From Candidatus Finniella inopinata (GTDB lineage Bacteria; Pseudomonadota; Alphaproteobacteria; Paracaedibacterales; CAITNM01), in the NCBI GenBank assembly GCA_945903885.1, contig CAMDPB010000001.1:1-26227 (forward strand): a DNA stretch of 26,227 nucleotides, read 5' to 3'. Below the pieces are notes generated by a model that was not told the DNA's origin, did no database searches, and worked only from the letters and a program-made list of their open reading frames with translations. Below are positions 14,713 through 22,974 of the stretch, in pieces. Both the position numbers and the translations under genes were made by a program. Numbering within the stretch: position 1 is the first letter of the stretch; every line of letters begins with the position of its first letter.

Positions 14713-15611
14713 ATGTTTTATTCTTGTTCACTTGTTTTTCAGTGCTTCGATGTGAAGTTCATACCGAAGTTTTTGAGCAAGTGCAAAAATGGAATAACAT
14801 ACAGCAGCAACTTGCAATTTTGTATAGTCAGCATGCTCAGATGAATGGTGATAAAGCTCATGATAAGCAAGAATTCTTTAATATACAGCAGCAATTAGGA
14901 GCAATCTATCTTGCTCAAAAACGTTATCAGCTAGGTTTTGGAACTGCCTTTCTTCCATCTGAAAAAGCTGTATACAACTATGTCAGAAAAAAAACATTCC
15001 TTGCTTTAAAAACAAAAGAGCTTGTGCCCTTATATAAAAAATATGTACAAGGATATCAAAAAAAATATGCTAGTGGAGAATTTGAGCGAATTCAAAAGCT
15101 TATCAAGCAACTAGAAGCATTGAATGTATTGCACGGAAAATTATTTGAACAACATAGCCAAGCATATGGAATAAAGCACTGGACAGATACACCAAAAATT
15201 AGAGAAATTTCTTCAATTCATCATTGGGTTAAAAAATTACCAGTAGGCAATGCAAGCAAAAAATTAAGTAACTTATTGAATTGGGTAACGCCAGTCGCTG
15301 GAATTAGAGAATCTTCCTCTAAAACGATATGGAGACCTCTTGCTGGAGCTATTGTTCTTTGTCCTGATGCTGGAATTGTAACATTAATAGGTCGTTTAGA
15401 AAGAGACATAGTTGTTTTTATCAAGCAGCATCATTTTACTTACGTTGTTATAGGACTTAACAAATGCCGAGTGAATGTTGGAGATAAATTGAAGCAAGGA
15501 GAGCCCTTAGGTTTTTGTGCAGATAAAGATCCAAGATTTGTGGAGTTACAACTATGGCGTGACGACATCACTCTAGACCCAGAGCCATACCATAAGGTTA
15601 TGCAGTTATGA
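14706..15611 (+). CDS. envC: EnvC-like murein hydrolase activator (coiled coil plus degenerate M23 domain)
   Basis: Leader, Gln-rich helical region, PVAG...V..PDAG.V...VNVGDKLKQGEPLG...LDP M23-like end lacking Zn ligands; gpmI-envC-ctpA synteny. Confidence 0.7.
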   Translation: MLNVLFLFTCFSVLRCEVHTEVFEQVQKWNNIQQQLAILYSQHAQMNGDKAHDKQEFFNIQQQLGAIYLAQKRYQLGFGTAFLPSEKAVYNYVRKKTFLALKTKELVPLYKKYVQGYQKKYASGEFERIQKLIKQLEALNVLHGKLFEQHSQAYGIKHWTDTPKIREISSIHHWVKKLPVGNASKKLSNLLNWVTPVAGIRESSSKTIWRPLAGAIVLCPDAGIVTLIGRLERDIVVFIKQHHFTYVVIGLNKCRVNVGDKLKQGEPLGFCADKDPRFVELQLWRDDITLDPEPYHKVMQL

Positions 15612-16681
15612 AATTATATATAGCTTTCTTTTTTTTATTAGTTGGTTGTTCAAGCCCTTATCAAGATTTACACGATAGTTTAGATGAAACCTTAGAAATT
15701 ATTGATTCGCTATACCCAGAAAAACCTTCCCATGAGAAACTCCGTCAGGGAATGTTGCATGGGTTGATTCAGGGGGTAGATGCACATGGAGCTTACTTGA
15801 ACGAGACACAAATAAGAGTCTTGAGAGAAACTGTTGATGGCGGAGAATTAAAATTAGGAATGGTTCTAACTAAGCATAAAGAAGGTCTGCAGGTCAAAAA
15901 AGTTTTTGAAAAATCAGCATCATATGCAGCTGGAATTAAAGTGAATGATATTTTAACGGAGTTTGATGGATCGCCTTTAAAAGGTATTCAGTTGAATGAT
16001 TTCCTAAATTTTATAAAAGAAAAAAAAACTTATAGCATTGCGCTTTTAAGAAACAAGAAAAAACTTGTGAAAGAAATTGTTCCGGGCCACTTCATAGCGC
16101 CAACTGCCGAACTAAAATGGTTTGGAAATGTTGCCTGTTTAAAGTTTGGTTGCGTGAGTAAAGAGGCGGCTGACGAGATACGAGAGTATTTACAAATAAT
16201 AAAATCGAACAAAAAATTATCCGGGCTAATTCTTGATTTGCGTGATTGCCCAGGAGGCAGTTTTGAGGCAGGAATAGGTATAGCCAGTCAATTTTTAGAT
16301 GGACACGTAGTAGTTGAAATGCAAAAAAAAGATGACTTTTCAAAATTTTGCTCTGCTAGTTTCGATATTTTGAATAAACAACCCATGGTTGTGCTGCAAA
16401 ATAAAAACACCTGTTCAGCTGCGGAAATTATTGCGGCAGCACTAAAAGCTCACAAACGTGCAACGCTTATTGGTGAAAACACGGCAGGAGGAGCTACTGC
16501 TAAAGAAGTTGTTTATTTTCCAAACCGTAAGGACGGGCTAATTATTTCAATTGCTTTCCTAAATGATCCTCTTGGAAAAAGGATAGGTCATGAAGGAGTA
16601 GAGCCTGATATGCGCATAGAAGAAATAGTGGCGTCTAAAAATAAAGATTTATACATTGAAAAAGCATTGAGTATTTTGTGA
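15608..16681 (+). CDS. ctpA: S41-family carboxyl-terminal protease with lipoprotein-like signal
   Basis: LVGC lipobox, PDZ segment (SASYAAGIKVNDIL), GLILDLRDCPGG, TCSAAEI, IGHEGVEPD. Confidence 0.9.
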   Translation: MKLYIAFFFLLVGCSSPYQDLHDSLDETLEIIDSLYPEKPSHEKLRQGMLHGLIQGVDAHGAYLNETQIRVLRETVDGGELKLGMVLTKHKEGLQVKKVFEKSASYAAGIKVNDILTEFDGSPLKGIQLNDFLNFIKEKKTYSIALLRNKKKLVKEIVPGHFIAPTAELKWFGNVACLKFGCVSKEAADEIREYLQIIKSNKKLSGLILDLRDCPGGSFEAGIGIASQFLDGHVVVEMQKKDDFSKFCSASFDILNKQPMVVLQNKNTCSAAEIIAAALKAHKRATLIGENTAGGATAKEVVYFPNRKDGLIISIAFLNDPLGKRIGHEGVEPDMRIEEIVASKNKDLYIEKALSIL

Positions 16682-16709
16682 TCCAAATAAAACTTAATAC
16701 AAAATCCAA

Positions 16710-16765
16710 TTGACCTAATGGTGTATATCATTATATTATTAAGATATGCACTATCAAGTGCATAT
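16710..16765 (+). promoter_or_regulatory. Candidate promoter plus palindromic operator upstream of the isonitrile-synthase pair
   Basis: TTGACC (16710-16715), 16 nt, TATATT (16732-16737); perfect IR ATATGCACT-atca-AGTGCATAT (16744-16765). Confidence 0.45.
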
Positions 16766-16886
16766 ACTCTAACCAATCTAAACATAGGGAATTCAATTAT
16801 GAACAACTTCTGGCAATTTTCATGGCGTGACATCGCATTAACAAAATCGAATAAACATTTACGAAAAAGTTTACGAGGAACCTATC

Positions 16887-17918
16887 ATGAAAAACCGTGT
16901 ATGCATAAAAGTTAGTATAATCTGTCTACTAAGTGCTATCCCAGCTCATTCTGAGTCTGTTTTAGGTCTAACATCTGACCAAATTCTAAACATTCTAAAA
17001 CCTTTCCAAATTACTCAAGATATCGATAAAAAAAGCTTAAATCAGCTTTTAAGATCTTCTGAACTTGATTTCCTTGACTATAAATCATTACAAGAAAAAA
17101 TTACTAAATTTTTAAGTCTCAAAAAACCACTGAAATTTCTATTGGTGGGCTTTCCTTTTAAATCAGCAAATACAGAAAAAAAAGTATTAGGCCAAGTGCC
17201 TGATATGGCTGAACGACGCAGTCTTGAATACCTATATGGCTGCATCAAGTCACTTAAAGAAGCTTATCCCCATGGGGTTGAATTAGTCATTTTTTGTGAT
17301 GGCATTCCTTTTTGCGAATACCTTGGGATTTCAGCTGAAACTGTAAAGTTATACGAACAAGGGTTGCAAAAGCTTGTGCAAGATATGCCAGAAATAACGC
17401 TGGTAACTTCTGATTCTTTACAAGAACAGTTGTCGCTCTCATCAACTCAGCATATTTGCGATGTGATCGATAAATACGCACCCAGCGATGAGGATTTTCA
17501 CATGCAGCTTGAAACAGATCCTGCCCTTCAAGATAGTTACAAAACCCTTTTAGGGCGTCTTGAAATTGAATTTGATTCTGTGCAAGGTCGAGAATTCTTA
17601 AAAGCTCATGGTCCTTTGTCAAAGATTACCAAAGCTCTTATGGCACGGGAGATGCGCATGCGTCGTTTCCTTGATGCACAGTTTGATGCTGAGAACTTCA
17701 TTCGCCTAACGGTTCATTATTCCAAGGATTTAGGTAAAAAGTTTGGCATTAAGCTTTCACCCAATTCTTTTGTCACTCCCTACCATGGGGTGCTGGTGGA
17801 AGAGGGGGATGGCAATTGGTTCATTCGTTTCCGAAAAGATATAGATCCTCAAATTTTTGAGGAGGTATCTGAAATGGTGAATGACGTGCAATGCCAGTAC
17901 ATGCGCCTCAAAAAATAA
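16887..17918 (+). CDS. Isonitrile (isocyanide) synthase-family protein, PvcA/IsnA/Dit1 type, with signal peptide
   Basis: GFPFKS, KKVLG..PDMAER, IFCDG, IRLTVH, KKFGI and TPYHGV correspond to PvcA FPAKS, KVL..PDMAER, VCSDG, IRLSIH, KFGI and TPWHGV; GAGGA RBS. Confidence 0.9.
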   Translation: MKNRVCIKVSIICLLSAIPAHSESVLGLTSDQILNILKPFQITQDIDKKSLNQLLRSSELDFLDYKSLQEKITKFLSLKKPLKFLLVGFPFKSANTEKKVLGQVPDMAERRSLEYLYGCIKSLKEAYPHGVELVIFCDGIPFCEYLGISAETVKLYEQGLQKLVQDMPEITLVTSDSLQEQLSLSSTQHICDVIDKYAPSDEDFHMQLETDPALQDSYKTLLGRLEIEFDSVQGREFLKAHGPLSKITKALMAREMRMRRFLDAQFDAENFIRLTVHYSKDLGKKFGIKLSPNSFVTPYHGVLVEEGDGNWFIRFRKDIDPQIFEEVSEMVNDVQCQYMRLKK

Positions 17919-18059
17919 CCTGACGAAAAGAATTTTTTAACACTGCTCTTGGGCAGTGAGGAGAATCTTTGTCTTTTTAACAATTTTAAAAAACAGCATT
18001 TGACTGTTCAGGGCGGCTATTTGCCTTGTTTAAATCAATTTTTTAAAAGGAGAATTATA

Positions 18060-19139
18060 ATGTCTAAAATATTGAAAATTCTAATACTTGCTGTATTGGC
18101 ATTTCCTGTTATGGGTGCTGCAGCGGTAGAGGAATTAGATGTTCCTGCTATATACAAAAGAACTTTACCTAAACTGGAGATTGATGGGCCTGATCTCCCT
18201 CTTATAAGAGCCAACAATATCGTAGACTATTTGCAGCTTCTAGGAGGTGGCATTCCTTTAAATAATGAGGCCCGTGACAGTTACACTGGTTATATAGAGA
18301 GTCATATGAGAACTGGTGACGCTATTCAATTTGTGATTCTAGGGTTTCCGTGTAAATCGACTAATGTGGAGAAAAAGGTTTTAAGCCAAAAATTTGATAT
18401 GGGTGACTACCTTGGGCTTATAAGGCTTGAACACTTAGCAGAGCAGATTCAAGAGTTTGTTGGGGTGCCTTGTGAAGTCCACATTATTAACAAGGAACCG
18501 TACATACCAGAAATGTTTAAGGCTATTGGAGCGGACTTAGGTATGGGTATGGAACTGCTTAATTCTGCTGAATACGAAGCTTCTTTTTTGCAGTTGCTAG
18601 GAACCTGTCCACATTTGCGTTGTGGTGCAGATTTGACCGAGGAATATCTCAAGCAAAAAGCGATGAAAATTTATCATACAGAAGCGGCAAAAGCACAAAT
18701 TGTAGCCGACGCAGAAGGATCAAAACGTTTTTTCACTGGTGAATTGGAATATTCTGTTGTTAATGCTGTGTTAAATGGAAAAGGGAAGGTAAGTAAAAAC
18801 GCTCTTGAAAAAGAACGAAAAAGATTAGGACTGTTAATGTCAGGAGTGTACCAACTAGGGGTAACAGTCTTTAGAGATGTGGTTAGAGCTCATGAATTGT
18901 ATAGTAGTATGCTACGCCTTTCTGTTCATGGAGACGAAACTAAAATTGGTATAAATTTTGCCAGTCAACCTGGTAGAGCGTGTGTGAACACTTGTGTGCC
19001 ATGGCACGCGGCTTTGCTATGCGAAAGATCAGGTGATGGTGTTTCGTTTGATCTTGTGCGTAGTGAAAATAGGCCAGCAGAATCACATGTGACAACCATG
19101 ACTGTAGCTAGTGTTGATTTGTCCTATATTCTAAGATAA
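18060..19139 (+). CDS. Divergent isonitrile synthase-family paralog with signal peptide
   Basis: AAGGAG 7 nt before ATG 18060; leader MSKILKILILAVLAFPVMG-AAA; GFPCKS, KKVL..FDM, LRLSVH, KIGI, VPWH retained. Confidence 0.82.
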   Translation: MSKILKILILAVLAFPVMGAAAVEELDVPAIYKRTLPKLEIDGPDLPLIRANNIVDYLQLLGGGIPLNNEARDSYTGYIESHMRTGDAIQFVILGFPCKSTNVEKKVLSQKFDMGDYLGLIRLEHLAEQIQEFVGVPCEVHIINKEPYIPEMFKAIGADLGMGMELLNSAEYEASFLQLLGTCPHLRCGADLTEEYLKQKAMKIYHTEAAKAQIVADAEGSKRFFTGELEYSVVNAVLNGKGKVSKNALEKERKRLGLLMSGVYQLGVTVFRDVVRAHELYSSMLRLSVHGDETKIGINFASQPGRACVNTCVPWHAALLCERSGDGVSFDLVRSENRPAESHVTTMTVASVDLSYILR

Positions 19140-19147
19140 TCAGCATA

Positions 19148-19172
19148 GGGGAGGGTGATTTTCGCTCTTCCC
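19148..19172. terminator. Hairpin between the convergent isonitrile-synthase paralog and priA
   Basis: ggggagggtga/tcgctcttccc 11-bp stem with 3 G-U pairs; no clear T-tract. Confidence 0.5.
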
Positions 19173-19182
19173 AATCTATCAT

Positions 19183-21129
19183 TCAATGAAATGCCAAAGG
19201 ATCAATATCTACAATTAGTCTTATACTATGTGGTTTGGTAACCTGAGAAAACCAGTGACGAATGAAAGATTGTATAGCAAACCCCTTTGGGTATTTTAAT
19301 AAAAACCGCCAACGAAATTGATTTTTCAACCTGGAGAGCGGCGCAGGAACAGGACCCATGATAAAAATATTATCATGCTTGGGAGCAGTATGCAGGAGCT
19401 TTCTGCAAAAACTCAAAATTTCTATATTATCACGTCCGCTTATTAAGAACGAAGCAAGCCTGCCAAAAGGAGGCATGCCATGCTGTTCTCTGTCCTCTAA
19501 CTCTAGCTCAACAAAGCTTTCTTGGTTCCAGTTGGCCACAGCTTTAATAACTAAATGGTCAGGATCGTAAGTTTGTAAATAAACAGTTCCTGGTTTTTGC
19601 TCTCGACCACATCGTCCTGCAACTTGGTGCAACTGTTGATACGTTCGCTCAGCACAACGCAAGTCTGGCCCATTAAGCCCCATATCTGCATCAACCACGC
19701 CTACTAATGTAATGTTTGGGAAGTGATATCCTTTGCTAAGCATTTGGGTTGCAACAATGATATCAAATTGATTGTTTAGAATTCCATCAACCATTTCTTG
19801 GGTGCGTTTTGGTGTATTTACCAAATCACTAGTCACACTTAAAATCCTAGCGTCAGGCAATAGACTTGCTAAATCTTCGCTTAACCGCTCAACACCAGGG
19901 CCACAAGGGCTTAATGTTGGTTGAGAACATTGAGGGCAAACTTCTGGAATGGGCTGAGTAAAATCACAATAATGGCAGTGAAGTCGTGGCTGATTTTTAT
20001 GCTGAACCAATGCGACATCGCAAGCACTGCAGGTGATTTTAAAACCGCAATCACTACAAATGGTTAAAGGAGCATAACCCCGTCTGTTTAAAAATAATAG
20101 ACTTTGCTCTTGATTGATAATGCGTTTTTGAATCTCTTCAAAAAGAGTAGGGTGTAACCATTGACTAGGGCGCTGCGTTTTTTTTAGGCCTCGCATGGAA
20201 AGAATATTCACGGTTGGCAGCGAAGCATTTCCAAAGCGACTATTAACCTTTAGGTGAGAATATTTTTTCTGATTAATATTGTATATTGTCTCAAGACTGG
20301 GTGTGGCTGAAACTAATACAGCGTGAATATCCTCTTCTTTTGCGCGCAAAATAGCCATATCACGTGCATGATAAATAATAACTTCATCTTGCTTGTATGA
20401 TGGGTCATGCTCTTCATCAACGACTAATAATCCTAGGTTACTAAACGGGAGTAATAAGGCTGATCTTGCACCTAGCATAATGCAAGGTGTGCCTTGATGA
20501 ACTTGGTGCCAAATAACGTTACGTTGTTTAGGGGTAATTTGTGAATGCCATATTAAAGGCTTTTTCCCAAAGCGTTCTTCGAAGCGTTGACGAAACTGTG
20601 CCGTTAAAGCTATTTCAGGCAGAAGAATTAGAGTTTGTTTACCCATTTCATATGCTTTTGCACTAGCCTCCAGATAAATTTCGGTCTTTCCACTTCCGGT
20701 TACTCCATCTAGCAAACTAATGTGAAATTCACCAAGTTTATTTACAATTTCATTTTTAGCCGTGCTTTGCTCAGGAGTAAGATTTGGAGTCTTAAAAATA
20801 TATTCAGCTGGTACAATGGCAGGTGAGATTAGTTCTTTGGGCAGCACATGTTTTATAAGCACACCCAAAGGTGTAAGTGTGTACTCAGCAAATTTTTTTA
20901 AAAAACTGACAAAATGCTCAGGCAATACTAAGGGGTAATAGTTCAATATGTTTTTTAAGCTGTGCTTAAAGTTGGAAGTGCTGGGTTCTAATGACCAAAT
21001 GATCCCAACAGTAACACTATTTTTTAAAGGCACTTCCACGAGTTGTCCTACAAGCGGTGAGACATCAAATGGCCATAAATAGGTAAGGGGTCTGTCTAAT
21101 ATTGAAGGTACTGCAACTTCTACATTCAT
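19183..21129 (-). CDS. priA: Primosomal protein N' (replication restart helicase)
   Basis: LLDGVTGSGKTE, LLPEIALT, VVDEEHD, SATPS, LFLNRRGYA, two CxxC pairs repeated, QLHQVAGRCGR. Confidence 0.97.
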   Translation of the reverse strand: MNVEVAVPSILDRPLTYLWPFDVSPLVGQLVEVPLKNSVTVGIIWSLEPSTSNFKHSLKNILNYYPLVLPEHFVSFLKKFAEYTLTPLGVLIKHVLPKELISPAIVPAEYIFKTPNLTPEQSTAKNEIVNKLGEFHISLLDGVTGSGKTEIYLEASAKAYEMGKQTLILLPEIALTAQFRQRFEERFGKKPLIWHSQITPKQRNVIWHQVHQGTPCIMLGARSALLLPFSNLGLLVVDEEHDPSYKQDEVIIYHARDMAILRAKEEDIHAVLVSATPSLETIYNINQKKYSHLKVNSRFGNASLPTVNILSMRGLKKTQRPSQWLHPTLFEEIQKRIINQEQSLLFLNRRGYAPLTICSDCGFKITCSACDVALVQHKNQPRLHCHYCDFTQPIPEVCPQCSQPTLSPCGPGVERLSEDLASLLPDARILSVTSDLVNTPKRTQEMVDGILNNQFDIIVATQMLSKGYHFPNITLVGVVDADMGLNGPDLRCAERTYQQLHQVAGRCGREQKPGTVYLQTYDPDHLVIKAVANWNQESFVELELEDREQHGMPPFGRLASFLISGRDNIEILSFCRKLLHTAPKHDNIFIMGPVPAPLSRLKNQFRWRFLLKYPKGFAIQSFIRHWFSQVTKPHSIRLIVDIDPLAFH

Positions 21130-21795: not shown

Positions 21796-22974
21796 CTACT
21801 CTTTCATTAATTGAACGCGATAGCGAAGTACAACCTCAGTTTTTGGTGCCACTTTGACTGGCCAATATACGCTTTGAGTGCTTTCTTGCTTGTGCGCCAT
21901 ACTTTCGCGAATTACTTTACCACGATTTTCGCCAAAAGGAAGCATAACTTTAATGTTTGCTTCCTTTTCGCCAAAGTTACGAATGGTTAATCTATAGGCT
22001 GCTTCTATAACTTTTTCAGTAAGCAAGGTCTTAAATTCAGTTTGTTCTAAGTTTCCTTGAATTTGTGTGAGAGGGGAATCTTGACTGGACTTAAGTTGAG
22101 AGAGTAAAAGCGGTGGAATACCTAATTGTATATCATCGCCAGATTTCGTGGCTAGCAAAGCGCTTCTGCCTAGAAATCTTAATGTATTACTGTTGTCACG
22201 AATATATATAGTAATGTCACCACTTGCTAAGTCTTGTGCAAGTTTTTCATCAAGTTTGAAGTGCAGCCAAATTTGTAAGGGAACCTGCCTCTCAACGCCT
22301 TGAAGATCATTGAGGTTTTCTTTTCCAACATCTAGTCGATAGTCTTGCCCAGCTTTTTGTTTACGAAACTCTACCCAAGGAATTCGAATGACACTACCTT
22401 TATGGATGAATTTAGGTGTATCAATAACATATTCATGAAAAATTTGATTTTTTGCTAAGTCATCGGTTTGTGCGTCAACTAAACGAAGTTGGATATTTTC
22501 AAAACTTGTACCTGATTGATTGTCTATGCTGACAAAGCTGTTAAAATTTTGTATTTCGTCAAACTGTTCGTTCACTTCAACAACGTAATGCATATGCCAA
22601 CCAATACCGGAAAAAATATAAGTAATTTCTCCTTGAAAGGGGTGTTTAGAGTTTAAAATCAAATCAACAGCTGTTAATACATCTTTATCTTTAGAAATAA
22701 TGTATTCAGGATTTGCGTTGTCTTCTTGACGAAATAAAACTGATTGAGAATCGATAGACCCCGGAACTGTAAACGAGTATTCTTTTTCTCCGCTAAATTT
22801 AATTGGCAAGGTAGCTACACAACGATCTTTGTAAATAACTAGATTTCCAGTTTTTGTTTCTTTTTTTGATTCTGCATGCTCTTTTTTCTGGTCAGGTGCT
22901 TTTGCGGCCTTCTCTTCTGCATGTCCCAATTGAGAGATCAACATTAAGCAGATAATTACAAAAAGTATTTTCAT
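21796..22974 (-). CDS. Exported DUF4139-like protein
   Basis: Signal MKILFVIICLMLISQLGHA; LVIY start; YIFSGIGWHMHY; IDNQSGTSFENIQLRLV; W.V.V.PKTEVVLRYRV end. Confidence 0.65.
   Translation of the reverse strand: MKILFVIICLMLISQLGHAEEKAAKAPDQKKEHAESKKETKTGNLVIYKDRCVATLPIKFSGEKEYSFTVPGSIDSQSVLFRQEDNANPEYIISKDKDVLTAVDLILNSKHPFQGEITYIFSGIGWHMHYVVEVNEQFDEIQNFNSFVSIDNQSGTSFENIQLRLVDAQTDDLAKNQIFHEYVIDTPKFIHKGSVIRIPWVEFRKQKAGQDYRLDVGKENLNDLQGVERQVPLQIWLHFKLDEKLAQDLASGDITIYIRDNSNTLRFLGRSALLATKSGDDIQLGIPPLLLSQLKSSQDSPLTQIQGNLEQTEFKTLLTEKVIEAAYRLTIRNFGEKEANIKVMLPFGENRGKVIRESMAHKQESTQSVYWPVKVAPKTEVVLRYRVQLMKE

Follow-up and report, generated by a model that had tools for sequence, protein, structure and literature searches.

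What would a probably intracellular bacterium with a reduced genome do with two adjacent genes of the isonitrile-synthase family, both encoding proteins with export-type leaders and neither accompanied by an oxygenase gene? The question is raised by par1 and par2, neighbouring genes in a 26,227-nucleotide stretch of the genome of Candidatus Finniella inopinata (contig CAMDPB010000001.1 of assembly GCA_945903885.1), which we refer to in its entirety as the window. An earlier note on this DNA had described tandem open reading frames (ORFs) of the PvcA/Dit1 family, and that description held: both proteins score above the PF05141 gathering threshold and both are predicted to adopt the PvcA/PIsnA fold. 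The reading we favour, with a confidence that reaches about the halfway mark, is that the locus is a tryptophan-responsive operon for two exported PvcA-fold proteins, with par1 the probable catalyst and par2 a fast-evolving partner. Such an operon would have three parts, a tryptophan leader in an upstream open reading frame (uORF), par1 and par2, and the two proteins would be ancient paralogues of the L-tyrosine/L-tryptophan isonitrile synthases that are inherited, lost and transferred jointly. As judged by sequence comparison, what the analysis adds to the earlier note is the co-evolution of the pair, the loss of two family motifs from par2, the tryptophan leader and a clade of par1 relatives with membrane anchors.

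A pair of divergent PvcA-fold paralogues

PF05141 (DIT1_PvcA) matches par1 with 133.9 bits (E 9.8e-39) and par2 with 67.7 bits (E 1.6e-18), the Pfam gathering cut-off being 26.4. The closest solved structures are those of PIsnA (9DH4, 9DHM, 9DHN) and PvcA (3E59), to which the two proteins are only 16-24% identical; the sequence of par1 alone finds PDB entry 9dhm at E 4.3e-20, and a par2 profile finds PIsnA at E 3e-31. AlphaFold (AF2) models of par1 and par2 have a mean predicted local distance difference test score (pLDDT) of 91.1 and 90.1, respectively. The par1 model superposes on PvcA 3e59 with Z 31.6 and on PIsnA 9dhm with Z 30.3 (~295 residues), its residues 28-342 aligning with residues 8-318 of the 3e59 chain and the PIsnA alignment beginning at par1 residue 21. 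For the par2 model, the best eight Foldseek matches are all PIsnA or PvcA (E 2.8e-12 to 1.3e-9); an ESM Atlas look-up with par2 returned nothing informative.

The two proteins part company in their conserved residues. Invariant features of the par1 clade include the FPFKSxN loop, DMAER, C-D-G, R254, H277, K285 and TPYHG, and all of the family motifs (FPxKSxN, S/C-D-G, Arg, RLxxH, Lys and TPxHG) are present in par1. Because the residues common to the signal-less relatives that we compared (FPxKSxN, D-G, Arg, His, Lys and P-x-H) are all retained, we infer that par1 is an active enzyme and likely the catalytic subunit. Proteins of the par2 type keep FPxKSxN (FPCKSxN in the window), RLSVH, Lys and PWH. 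In the window's par2, N-K-E replaces S/C-D-G, and the position of the conserved Arg is a Gly in 25 of 31 par2-type sequences, this one included. Thus, par2 may serve as a non-identical partner subunit or specificity factor rather than as a second copy of the enzyme. A further peculiarity of par1 is a pair of cysteines, C137 and C336, that is conserved in 22 of 25 proteins of its clade, while the signal-less relatives have S/L/T and F/Y/S at these positions; the pair could form a disulphide in an exported par1, and it is kept in relatives with a signal peptide-like leader and in those with an anchor alike.

A scan of species-representative genomes yielded 20 loci (given L numbers below), and in about 17 of them a par1-type gene lies directly beside a par2-type gene, an arrangement also found on metagenome contigs. 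The nearest locus, with a par1 that is 94% identical, belongs to a metagenome-assembled genome (MAG) of Candidatus Odyssella, which fits the earlier note's placement of the organism among Holosporales-type, host-associated bacteria. Other carriers are Candidatus Finniella, further alphaproteobacterial MAGs of Paracaedibacteraceae type, a Dependentiae MAG and MAGs labelled Myxococcales. Across the 20 loci no neighbour of the pair recurs, be it an oxygenase, a P450, a transporter or anything else, so that ctpA and priA, which flank it here, are mere context. The family occurs in 14 of 62 species genomes of the window's order, with every match in an adjacent pair, and in seven of 13 other species of its genus. 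The pair is thus a patchily distributed accessory cassette.

In a maximum-likelihood tree, par1 sequences form a single clade (support 100/99) that adjoins signal-less members of the family. The par2 subclades mirror those of par1 with branches about three times longer, the path from the window to L008 measuring 0.38 for par1 and 1.15 for par2. Mirrored subtrees of this kind point to an old duplication followed by joint movement of the two genes, also between phyla. Proteins of the par2 type are rare, with 62 cluster representatives among 1.84 billion at E 1e-3 and six at E 1e-30.

Both genes are under purifying selection, as the ratio of nonsynonymous to synonymous substitution rates (dN/dS) is 0.13-0.25 for par1 and 0.21-0.39 for par2. 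The latter range and an intact frame rule out the idea that the window's par2 is a decaying pseudogene. Comparison of the window with L006 and L007 also revealed a mosaic: par1 is 97-98% identical, with a synonymous divergence (dS) of 0.05-0.10, while the flanking ctpA and priA have dS values of 0.16-0.84, which leaves par1 three to eight times below its flanks between strains. The least conserved stretch relative to L006 is par2, at 81-84% identity where the flanks mostly reach 93-98%. This suggests that par1 has undergone recombination or a sweep and that par2 has diversified.

The tryptophan leader

The leader uORF ahead of par1 has tryptophan codons at positions 5 and 9 (16811-16813 and 16823-16825) and a Shine-Dalgarno-like GGGAA 7 nt 5' of its start, and it runs 29 nt into the start region of par1 in a different frame. 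Its geometry is conserved. A 38-codon uORF whose ATG lies exactly 88 nt ahead of that of par1 is also found at L006-L009, L040, L041 and L044, and the same spacing with a 37-codon uORF at L024 and at L015/L016, where par1 is only 36% identical to that of the window. The distance is 82 nt in L042/43, and other shorter or longer spacings occur in L014, L037 and L039. A second class of leader (L017-L021, L023, L034) is 11-26 codons long and carries W-R-W or a similar sequence just ahead of the stop codon. Common to all leaders is a core of the form aromatic-x-W-[RQ]-[FW], which in leaders of the window's type reads [FY]x(1-3)W[RQ][FW]. Gene callers run on metagenome contigs predicted the leader ORF independently. 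An open frame of 38 codons has by itself a chance of about 0.08 per lineage, and, set against the base composition, the presence in 14 lineages of one to three tryptophan codons among the leader's first 15 is very unlikely to be accidental, with a summed log10 P of about -20.8 and the caveat that the lineages are not fully independent. At the Dependentiae-like and 'Myxococcales' loci the tryptophan leader is absent.

Short leaders of this kind have well-known counterparts. Attenuation at trpL depends on stalling at tryptophan codons during starvation, tnaC on an arrest induced by tryptophan, and ermC and cat on translational attenuation. The leader described here resembles them in being a short uORF that contains one to three tryptophan codons and is served by a Shine-Dalgarno site of its own, and in the short-leader relatives also in its pairing with the downstream start region. 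In those relatives (L017-L023, L034) a long hairpin joins the leader's 5' portion to the ribosome-binding region of par1 (z -2.1 to -4.95 in single-sequence folds), and RNAalifold on a MAFFT alignment of the short leaders recovered no consensus structure. Given this pairing with the par1 start, a ribosome stalled at the tryptophan codons would be expected to free it. The window's leader differs from trpL and tnaC in extending across the par1 start and in lacking a significant hairpin, and leaders of its type may instead act by occlusion of, or coupling to, that start. In either architecture, pausing of the ribosome at the tryptophan codons would set the level of expression. The trigger could be a scarcity of Trp-tRNA, as for trpL and as the clustering of the codons favours, or free tryptophan, as for tnaC, and the leader might accordingly raise or lower expression as tryptophan runs short.

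Unlike trpL and tnaC, the leader precedes a pair of exported-type enzymes rather than genes for tryptophan biosynthesis or tryptophanase, and the organisms that carry it lack trpA. The genome from which the window comes is 1.07 Mb in size and 76% complete, so that absences from it alone are weak, and it is the genomes of relatives that strengthen them. A trpA gene was found neither in this genome nor in those of four relatives, one of which is 98% complete. The organism thus probably relies on its host for tryptophan, and an operon governed by the leader would respond to tryptophan that the host supplies. What is new here is the examination of the tryptophan leader in two architectures together with the absence of trpA, a tally across the order, the reversed charge bias of par1 relatives with an anchor and the uneven conservation of par1, par2 and their spacer between strains. 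A tryptophan leader in probable tryptophan auxotrophs of one order would tie isonitrile chemistry to the supply of an amino acid.

Topology and chemistry of the encoded proteins

The earlier note had assigned Sec-type leaders to both proteins. We see the same on inspection, and a hydrophobic N-terminal leader is kept in 60 of 62 full-length par1 matches and in 45 of 53 matches of the par2 type, the leaderless exceptions including ordinary signal-less members of the family; our use of the term signal peptide for par1 and par2 rests on this combination of inspection and conservation. To the eye, both leaders open with basic residues and continue with a short hydrophobic stretch, small residues at -3 and -1 and then acidic ones, and in par1 the sequence A-H-S followed by E makes a plausible signal peptidase I site. 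The par1 leader is conserved across orthologues P0001-P0010, and that of par2 is followed by a conserved motif, Yxx(S/T)LPx(I/L). Structural matches place the enzyme fold after the leaders, and the first ~20 residues of both proteins therefore lie outside it; pLDDT falls below 50 at par1 residues 13-22 and at residues 20-23 of the par2 query. Two other proteins of the window offer an internal comparison: a DUF4139 protein (21796-22974, minus strand) has a leader of the same style (MKILFVIICLMLISQLGHA, then EE), and the ctpA-like protease has the lipobox LVGC. We suspect that the Sec pathway exports par1 and par2, taking them to the periplasm or perhaps further by a secretin-dependent route.

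Several observations weigh against an operon for two exported isonitrile synthases. The scores to NCBIfam NF045653, the equivalog model for the L-tyrosine isonitrile synthase PvcA, are 85.5 bits for par1 and 25.6 for par2 where the cut-off is 600, so that these are family members and not PvcA orthologues. That par2 is non-catalytic is only a guess, and the par2 copies of two close relatives, L006 (7063-8242) and L009 (7140-8257), are each broken into two ORFs where a T-run (GGTTTTTTTGCC and GAGCTTTTTTGCG) carries a one-base shift; the two pieces have dN/dS values of 0.17-0.39 relative to the window, and the splits could be recent inactivation, slippage or assembly error. Several close relatives retain a single tryptophan codon in the leader, and the RNA of the window's leader region gives z +0.69 and no consensus pairs in RNAalifold. 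The genome's incompleteness, mentioned above, counts on the same side. The remaining points concern topology. In 33 of the 62 par1 homologues (P0020-P0062; loci L012, L013, L022 and L025), the leader is replaced by a transmembrane anchor of 17-24 residues, and in 25 of these 33 there is an excess of K/R behind the hydrophobic segment. By the positive-inside rule a cluster in this position predicts a cytoplasmic domain, the opposite of what is predicted for the signal peptide-like clade.

It is conceivable, then, that par1 and par2 are membrane-tethered enzymes facing the cytoplasm, with the N-terminal segments acting as anchors, ribulose-5-phosphate from the cell's own metabolism and amino acids taken up from outside as substrates, and a product that leaves through the membrane. 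To our knowledge, every characterised PF05141 enzyme is cytoplasmic. Moreover, the genome carries rpe and rpiB (rpiA gave no match there), which indicates that ribulose-5-phosphate is made in the bacterium's own cytoplasm and makes the chemistry of an enzyme on that side the simpler one. We nevertheless consider this topology unlikely. In the window's clade the hydrophobic (h-) regions span no more than 7-15 residues, with small residues at -3/-1 and acidic ones after, and K/R lies ahead of the h-region, not behind it, in 20 of 29 signal peptide-like par1 homologues, which fits an N-in/C-out orientation. Lipobox variants occur in some orthologues (LSAC in L010, LSSC in L024), and par2-type proteins are overwhelmingly signal peptide-like. 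On the tree the anchor type is limited to one derived, Dependentiae-like clade, with many metagenome matches besides, whereas the signal peptide-like state is deeper and more widespread. The earlier note had reasoned that an exported enzyme would lack ribulose-5-phosphate, an argument we find weak. Cultured Paracaedibacteraceae live in the host cytoplasm, and for a bacterium lying free there, with entry through porins, the objection would not hold: the sugar phosphates and amino acids of a protist host could then get to par1 and par2 in the periplasm.

The favoured reading of export to the periplasm can be carried a step further, to secreted effectors that leave the cell by Sec and then a secretin-dependent exit and convert ribulose-5-phosphate and aromatic amino acids of the host cytosol into an isonitrile that binds metals or haem and changes the physiology of the host. 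Two secretin-family genes in the genome would suit such a route, and the cassette is a patchy accessory element of host-associated-looking genomes from several phyla (1.1-2.1 Mb where a size was returned) with a par2 that evolves fast, as host-facing proteins often do. The surroundings of the pair at some loci have the same flavour. On a contig of 1.5 Mb (L004/L012) it lies among genes for SET, zf-MYND and large WD40 proteins and an ALO-type oxidase with a flavin adenine dinucleotide-binding domain, and an F-box gene is found near it on another contig; eukaryote-like neighbours of this sort are typical for bacteria of amoebae and other protists, and together with the small genomes they fit a host-associated lifestyle. 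Set against this, neither VirB4 of type IV nor VipB of type VI secretion systems was found in the genome, the dN/dS of par2 (0.2-0.4) signals purifying and not diversifying selection, and orthologues that are lipoproteins or membrane-anchored argue for retention in the envelope. A role as secreted effectors therefore strikes us as quite improbable.

As to the reaction, par1 may carry out a condensation between an aromatic amino acid and a phosphorylated keto sugar, ribulose-5-phosphate for example. Bacterial PF05141 enzymes are usually paired with a PvcB/IsnB oxygenase. The earlier note had found no PvcB gene adjacent to the pair, and the absence extends to the genome and its relatives, since PF02668 (PvcB/TauD) has no match in the 76%-complete genome or in those of five relatives, and no PvcB/TauD-type oxygenase lies beside the pair at any of the 20 loci. 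Likewise, PF00067 (cytochrome P450) has no match in this genome or in four relatives. With neither partner present, one would expect a simple alpha-isocyano acid, or the N-formyl compound formed by its hydration, as the product. PvcA (PA2254 of Pseudomonas aeruginosa) and IsnA/PIsnA, the L-Tyr/L-Trp isonitrile synthases that share PF05141 and the fold with par1 and par2, have no export-type leader, while both proteins here have one. In contrast to those systems, the present one also combines the lack of PvcB/IsnB in the genome with a heterologous pair, a par2 devoid of two motifs, a tryptophan leader upstream, and carriers that are reduced-genome, probably intracellular bacteria. A likeness to the pair itself is seen in AmbI1/AmbI2 and WelI1/WelI2, side-by-side IsnA-type paralogues of cyanobacterial hapalindole-type clusters. 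These are cytoplasmic and belong to large clusters with an IsnB-type oxygenase (I3), one paralogue plus I3 being sufficient for activity; par1 and par2 differ in having no oxygenase, in both carrying leaders and in being far more diverged, as the 67.7 bits of par2 attest.

Alternatively, the pair may carry out a different chemistry in the envelope, modifying the amine of an envelope component or periplasmic metabolite, or making an N-formyl amino acid in the manner of yeast Dit1, with no free isonitrile. The low NF045653 scores, the failure to find a tailoring enzyme and the two motifs missing from par2 are in keeping with this, as is the fact that envelope genes (an M23 peptidase and ctpA) adjoin the pair in the window. 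Dit1 offers a precedent in that it, too, is a PF05141 protein without a PvcB-type oxygenase. According to one paper, Dit1 resides in the spore cytosol, an isocyanide synthase does not rescue it, and the formyl tyrosine that it yields comes to lie in a layer of the cell wall (PMC7345447). However, Dit1 works with the P450 Dit2, for which the genome and its four relatives offer no counterpart, and it lacks the export leaders of par1 and par2. Against a distinct envelope chemistry, par1 retains every motif common to the signal-less relatives that were compared, other lineages do not have the pair among envelope genes as the window does, and the tryptophan leader points to a link with aromatic amino acids. 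We hold this reading to be rather unlikely.

The fullest version of the favoured reading would join all of its parts: a tryptophan-auxotrophic endosymbiont senses host tryptophan through the leader and switches on a periplasmic, heteromeric isonitrile synthase, which turns host metabolites into a metal- or haem-binding alpha-isocyano acid released into the host cytosol, the cassette having spread between unrelated protist symbionts. Taken whole, this chain is a long shot. Isonitrile natural products bind metals and haem strongly, and certain of them have roles in virulence or in the uptake of metals. If the chain were real, an alpha-isocyano acid could block haem enzymes of the host, such as those that degrade tryptophan, and the pair would be without precedent as an isonitrile synthase outside the cytoplasm and as a means by which a symbiont manipulates the metabolism of its host. 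Copper sequestration or inhibition of host enzymes, which the earlier note had put forward, is speculation.

The earlier note knew of no secreted isonitrile synthase, and the searchable literature likewise yielded no description of a signal-bearing isocyanide synthase or of PF05141 in endosymbionts of the Holosporales or Dependentiae. The locus points to an undescribed variant of isonitrile-synthase chemistry at the cell envelope that is tied to tryptophan supply. Export signals, the lack of an oxygenase, two paralogues, spread across phyla and a tryptophan leader would together place this chemistry at the interface between symbiont and host. The lineage turns up in many metagenomes of lakes and fresh waters, so what the cassette does may be of ecological importance to the protists living there.

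Gene starts, surroundings and spacer

The features of the locus are collected in the table. As the earlier note had it, the pair sits between ctpA and priA, with an S41/PDZ gene upstream and a priA-type gene downstream; the upstream surroundings comprise gpmI, an M23-like gene and the ctpA-like gene. The GC (guanine plus cytosine) content is about 38-39% across the window, with no compositional break at par1-par2.

Table. Features of the par1-par2 locus in window coordinates
Feature	Position	Strand	Description
ctpA-like S41/PDZ carboxy-terminal protease, lipoprotein	15608-16681	+	Upstream neighbour; Pfam matches
Promoter-like site, TTGACC, 16-18 nt spacer, TATATT/TATTAT	16710-16739	+	Consensus scan, 10/12 matches; pattern match alone
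Leader uORF, 38 codons, MNNFWQFSWRDIALTKSNKHLRKSLRGTYHEKPCMHKS	16799-16915	+	Direct reading; begins MNNFWQFSWRD...
par1	16887-17918	+	343 aa, PF05141 (DIT1_PvcA) protein
par1 N-terminal leader, MKNRVCIKVSIICLLSAIPAHS, then ES	16887-16952	+	Basic N-terminal (n-) region, 12-residue h-region; inspection
par1-par2 spacer	17919-18059	+	Non-coding; two small hairpin candidates and par2 Shine-Dalgarno site
par2	18060-19139	+	359 aa, divergent PvcA-fold paralogue of par1
par2 N-terminal leader, MSKILKILILAVLAFPVMG, then AAAVEE	18060-18116	+	Sec-type features; inspection
priA-type helicase gene	19183-21129	-	Convergent, downstream of par2; ORF, PriA Pfam domains on L040, L041 and L044 orthologues

Direct reading bears out the strong ribosome-binding sites claimed for both genes, GAGGA (16875-16879) for par1 and AGGAG (18048-18052) for par2, each 7 nt ahead of its ATG. 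Orthologues of par2 begin MSKIL or MPKIL (the latter in L008), which together with the AGGAG identifies ATG 18060 as its start. Starts at the in-frame TTG 17949 or at 18057 were ruled out, the former because one-base indels break that frame in relatives; the par2 query sequence ran from 18057, and its residue numbers therefore exceed the true ones by one. A gap of 205 nt follows ctpA, and within it the promoter-like site lies some 60 nt ahead of the leader ORF. An Rfam scan of 16500-19300 gave no relevant match. Among RNA libraries the one match was a 253-nt contig from a peat metatranscriptome that covers par1 from 17655 to 17907 with nine differences, which is weak evidence that par1 of a relative is transcribed, as carry-over of DNA is possible for that contig.

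The spacer between the genes is non-coding, since indels break every reading frame in relatives. A long-range alternative pairing of the spacer was discarded as weak (-6 kcal/mol). Its two hairpin candidates (CACUGC/GCAGUG and CAGGGC/GCCUUG) are 86% paired, with covariation not above that of shuffled controls. The mean column identity of the spacer over 10 loci is 80%, above that of either flanking gene, and it could be a second control point, acting on par2.

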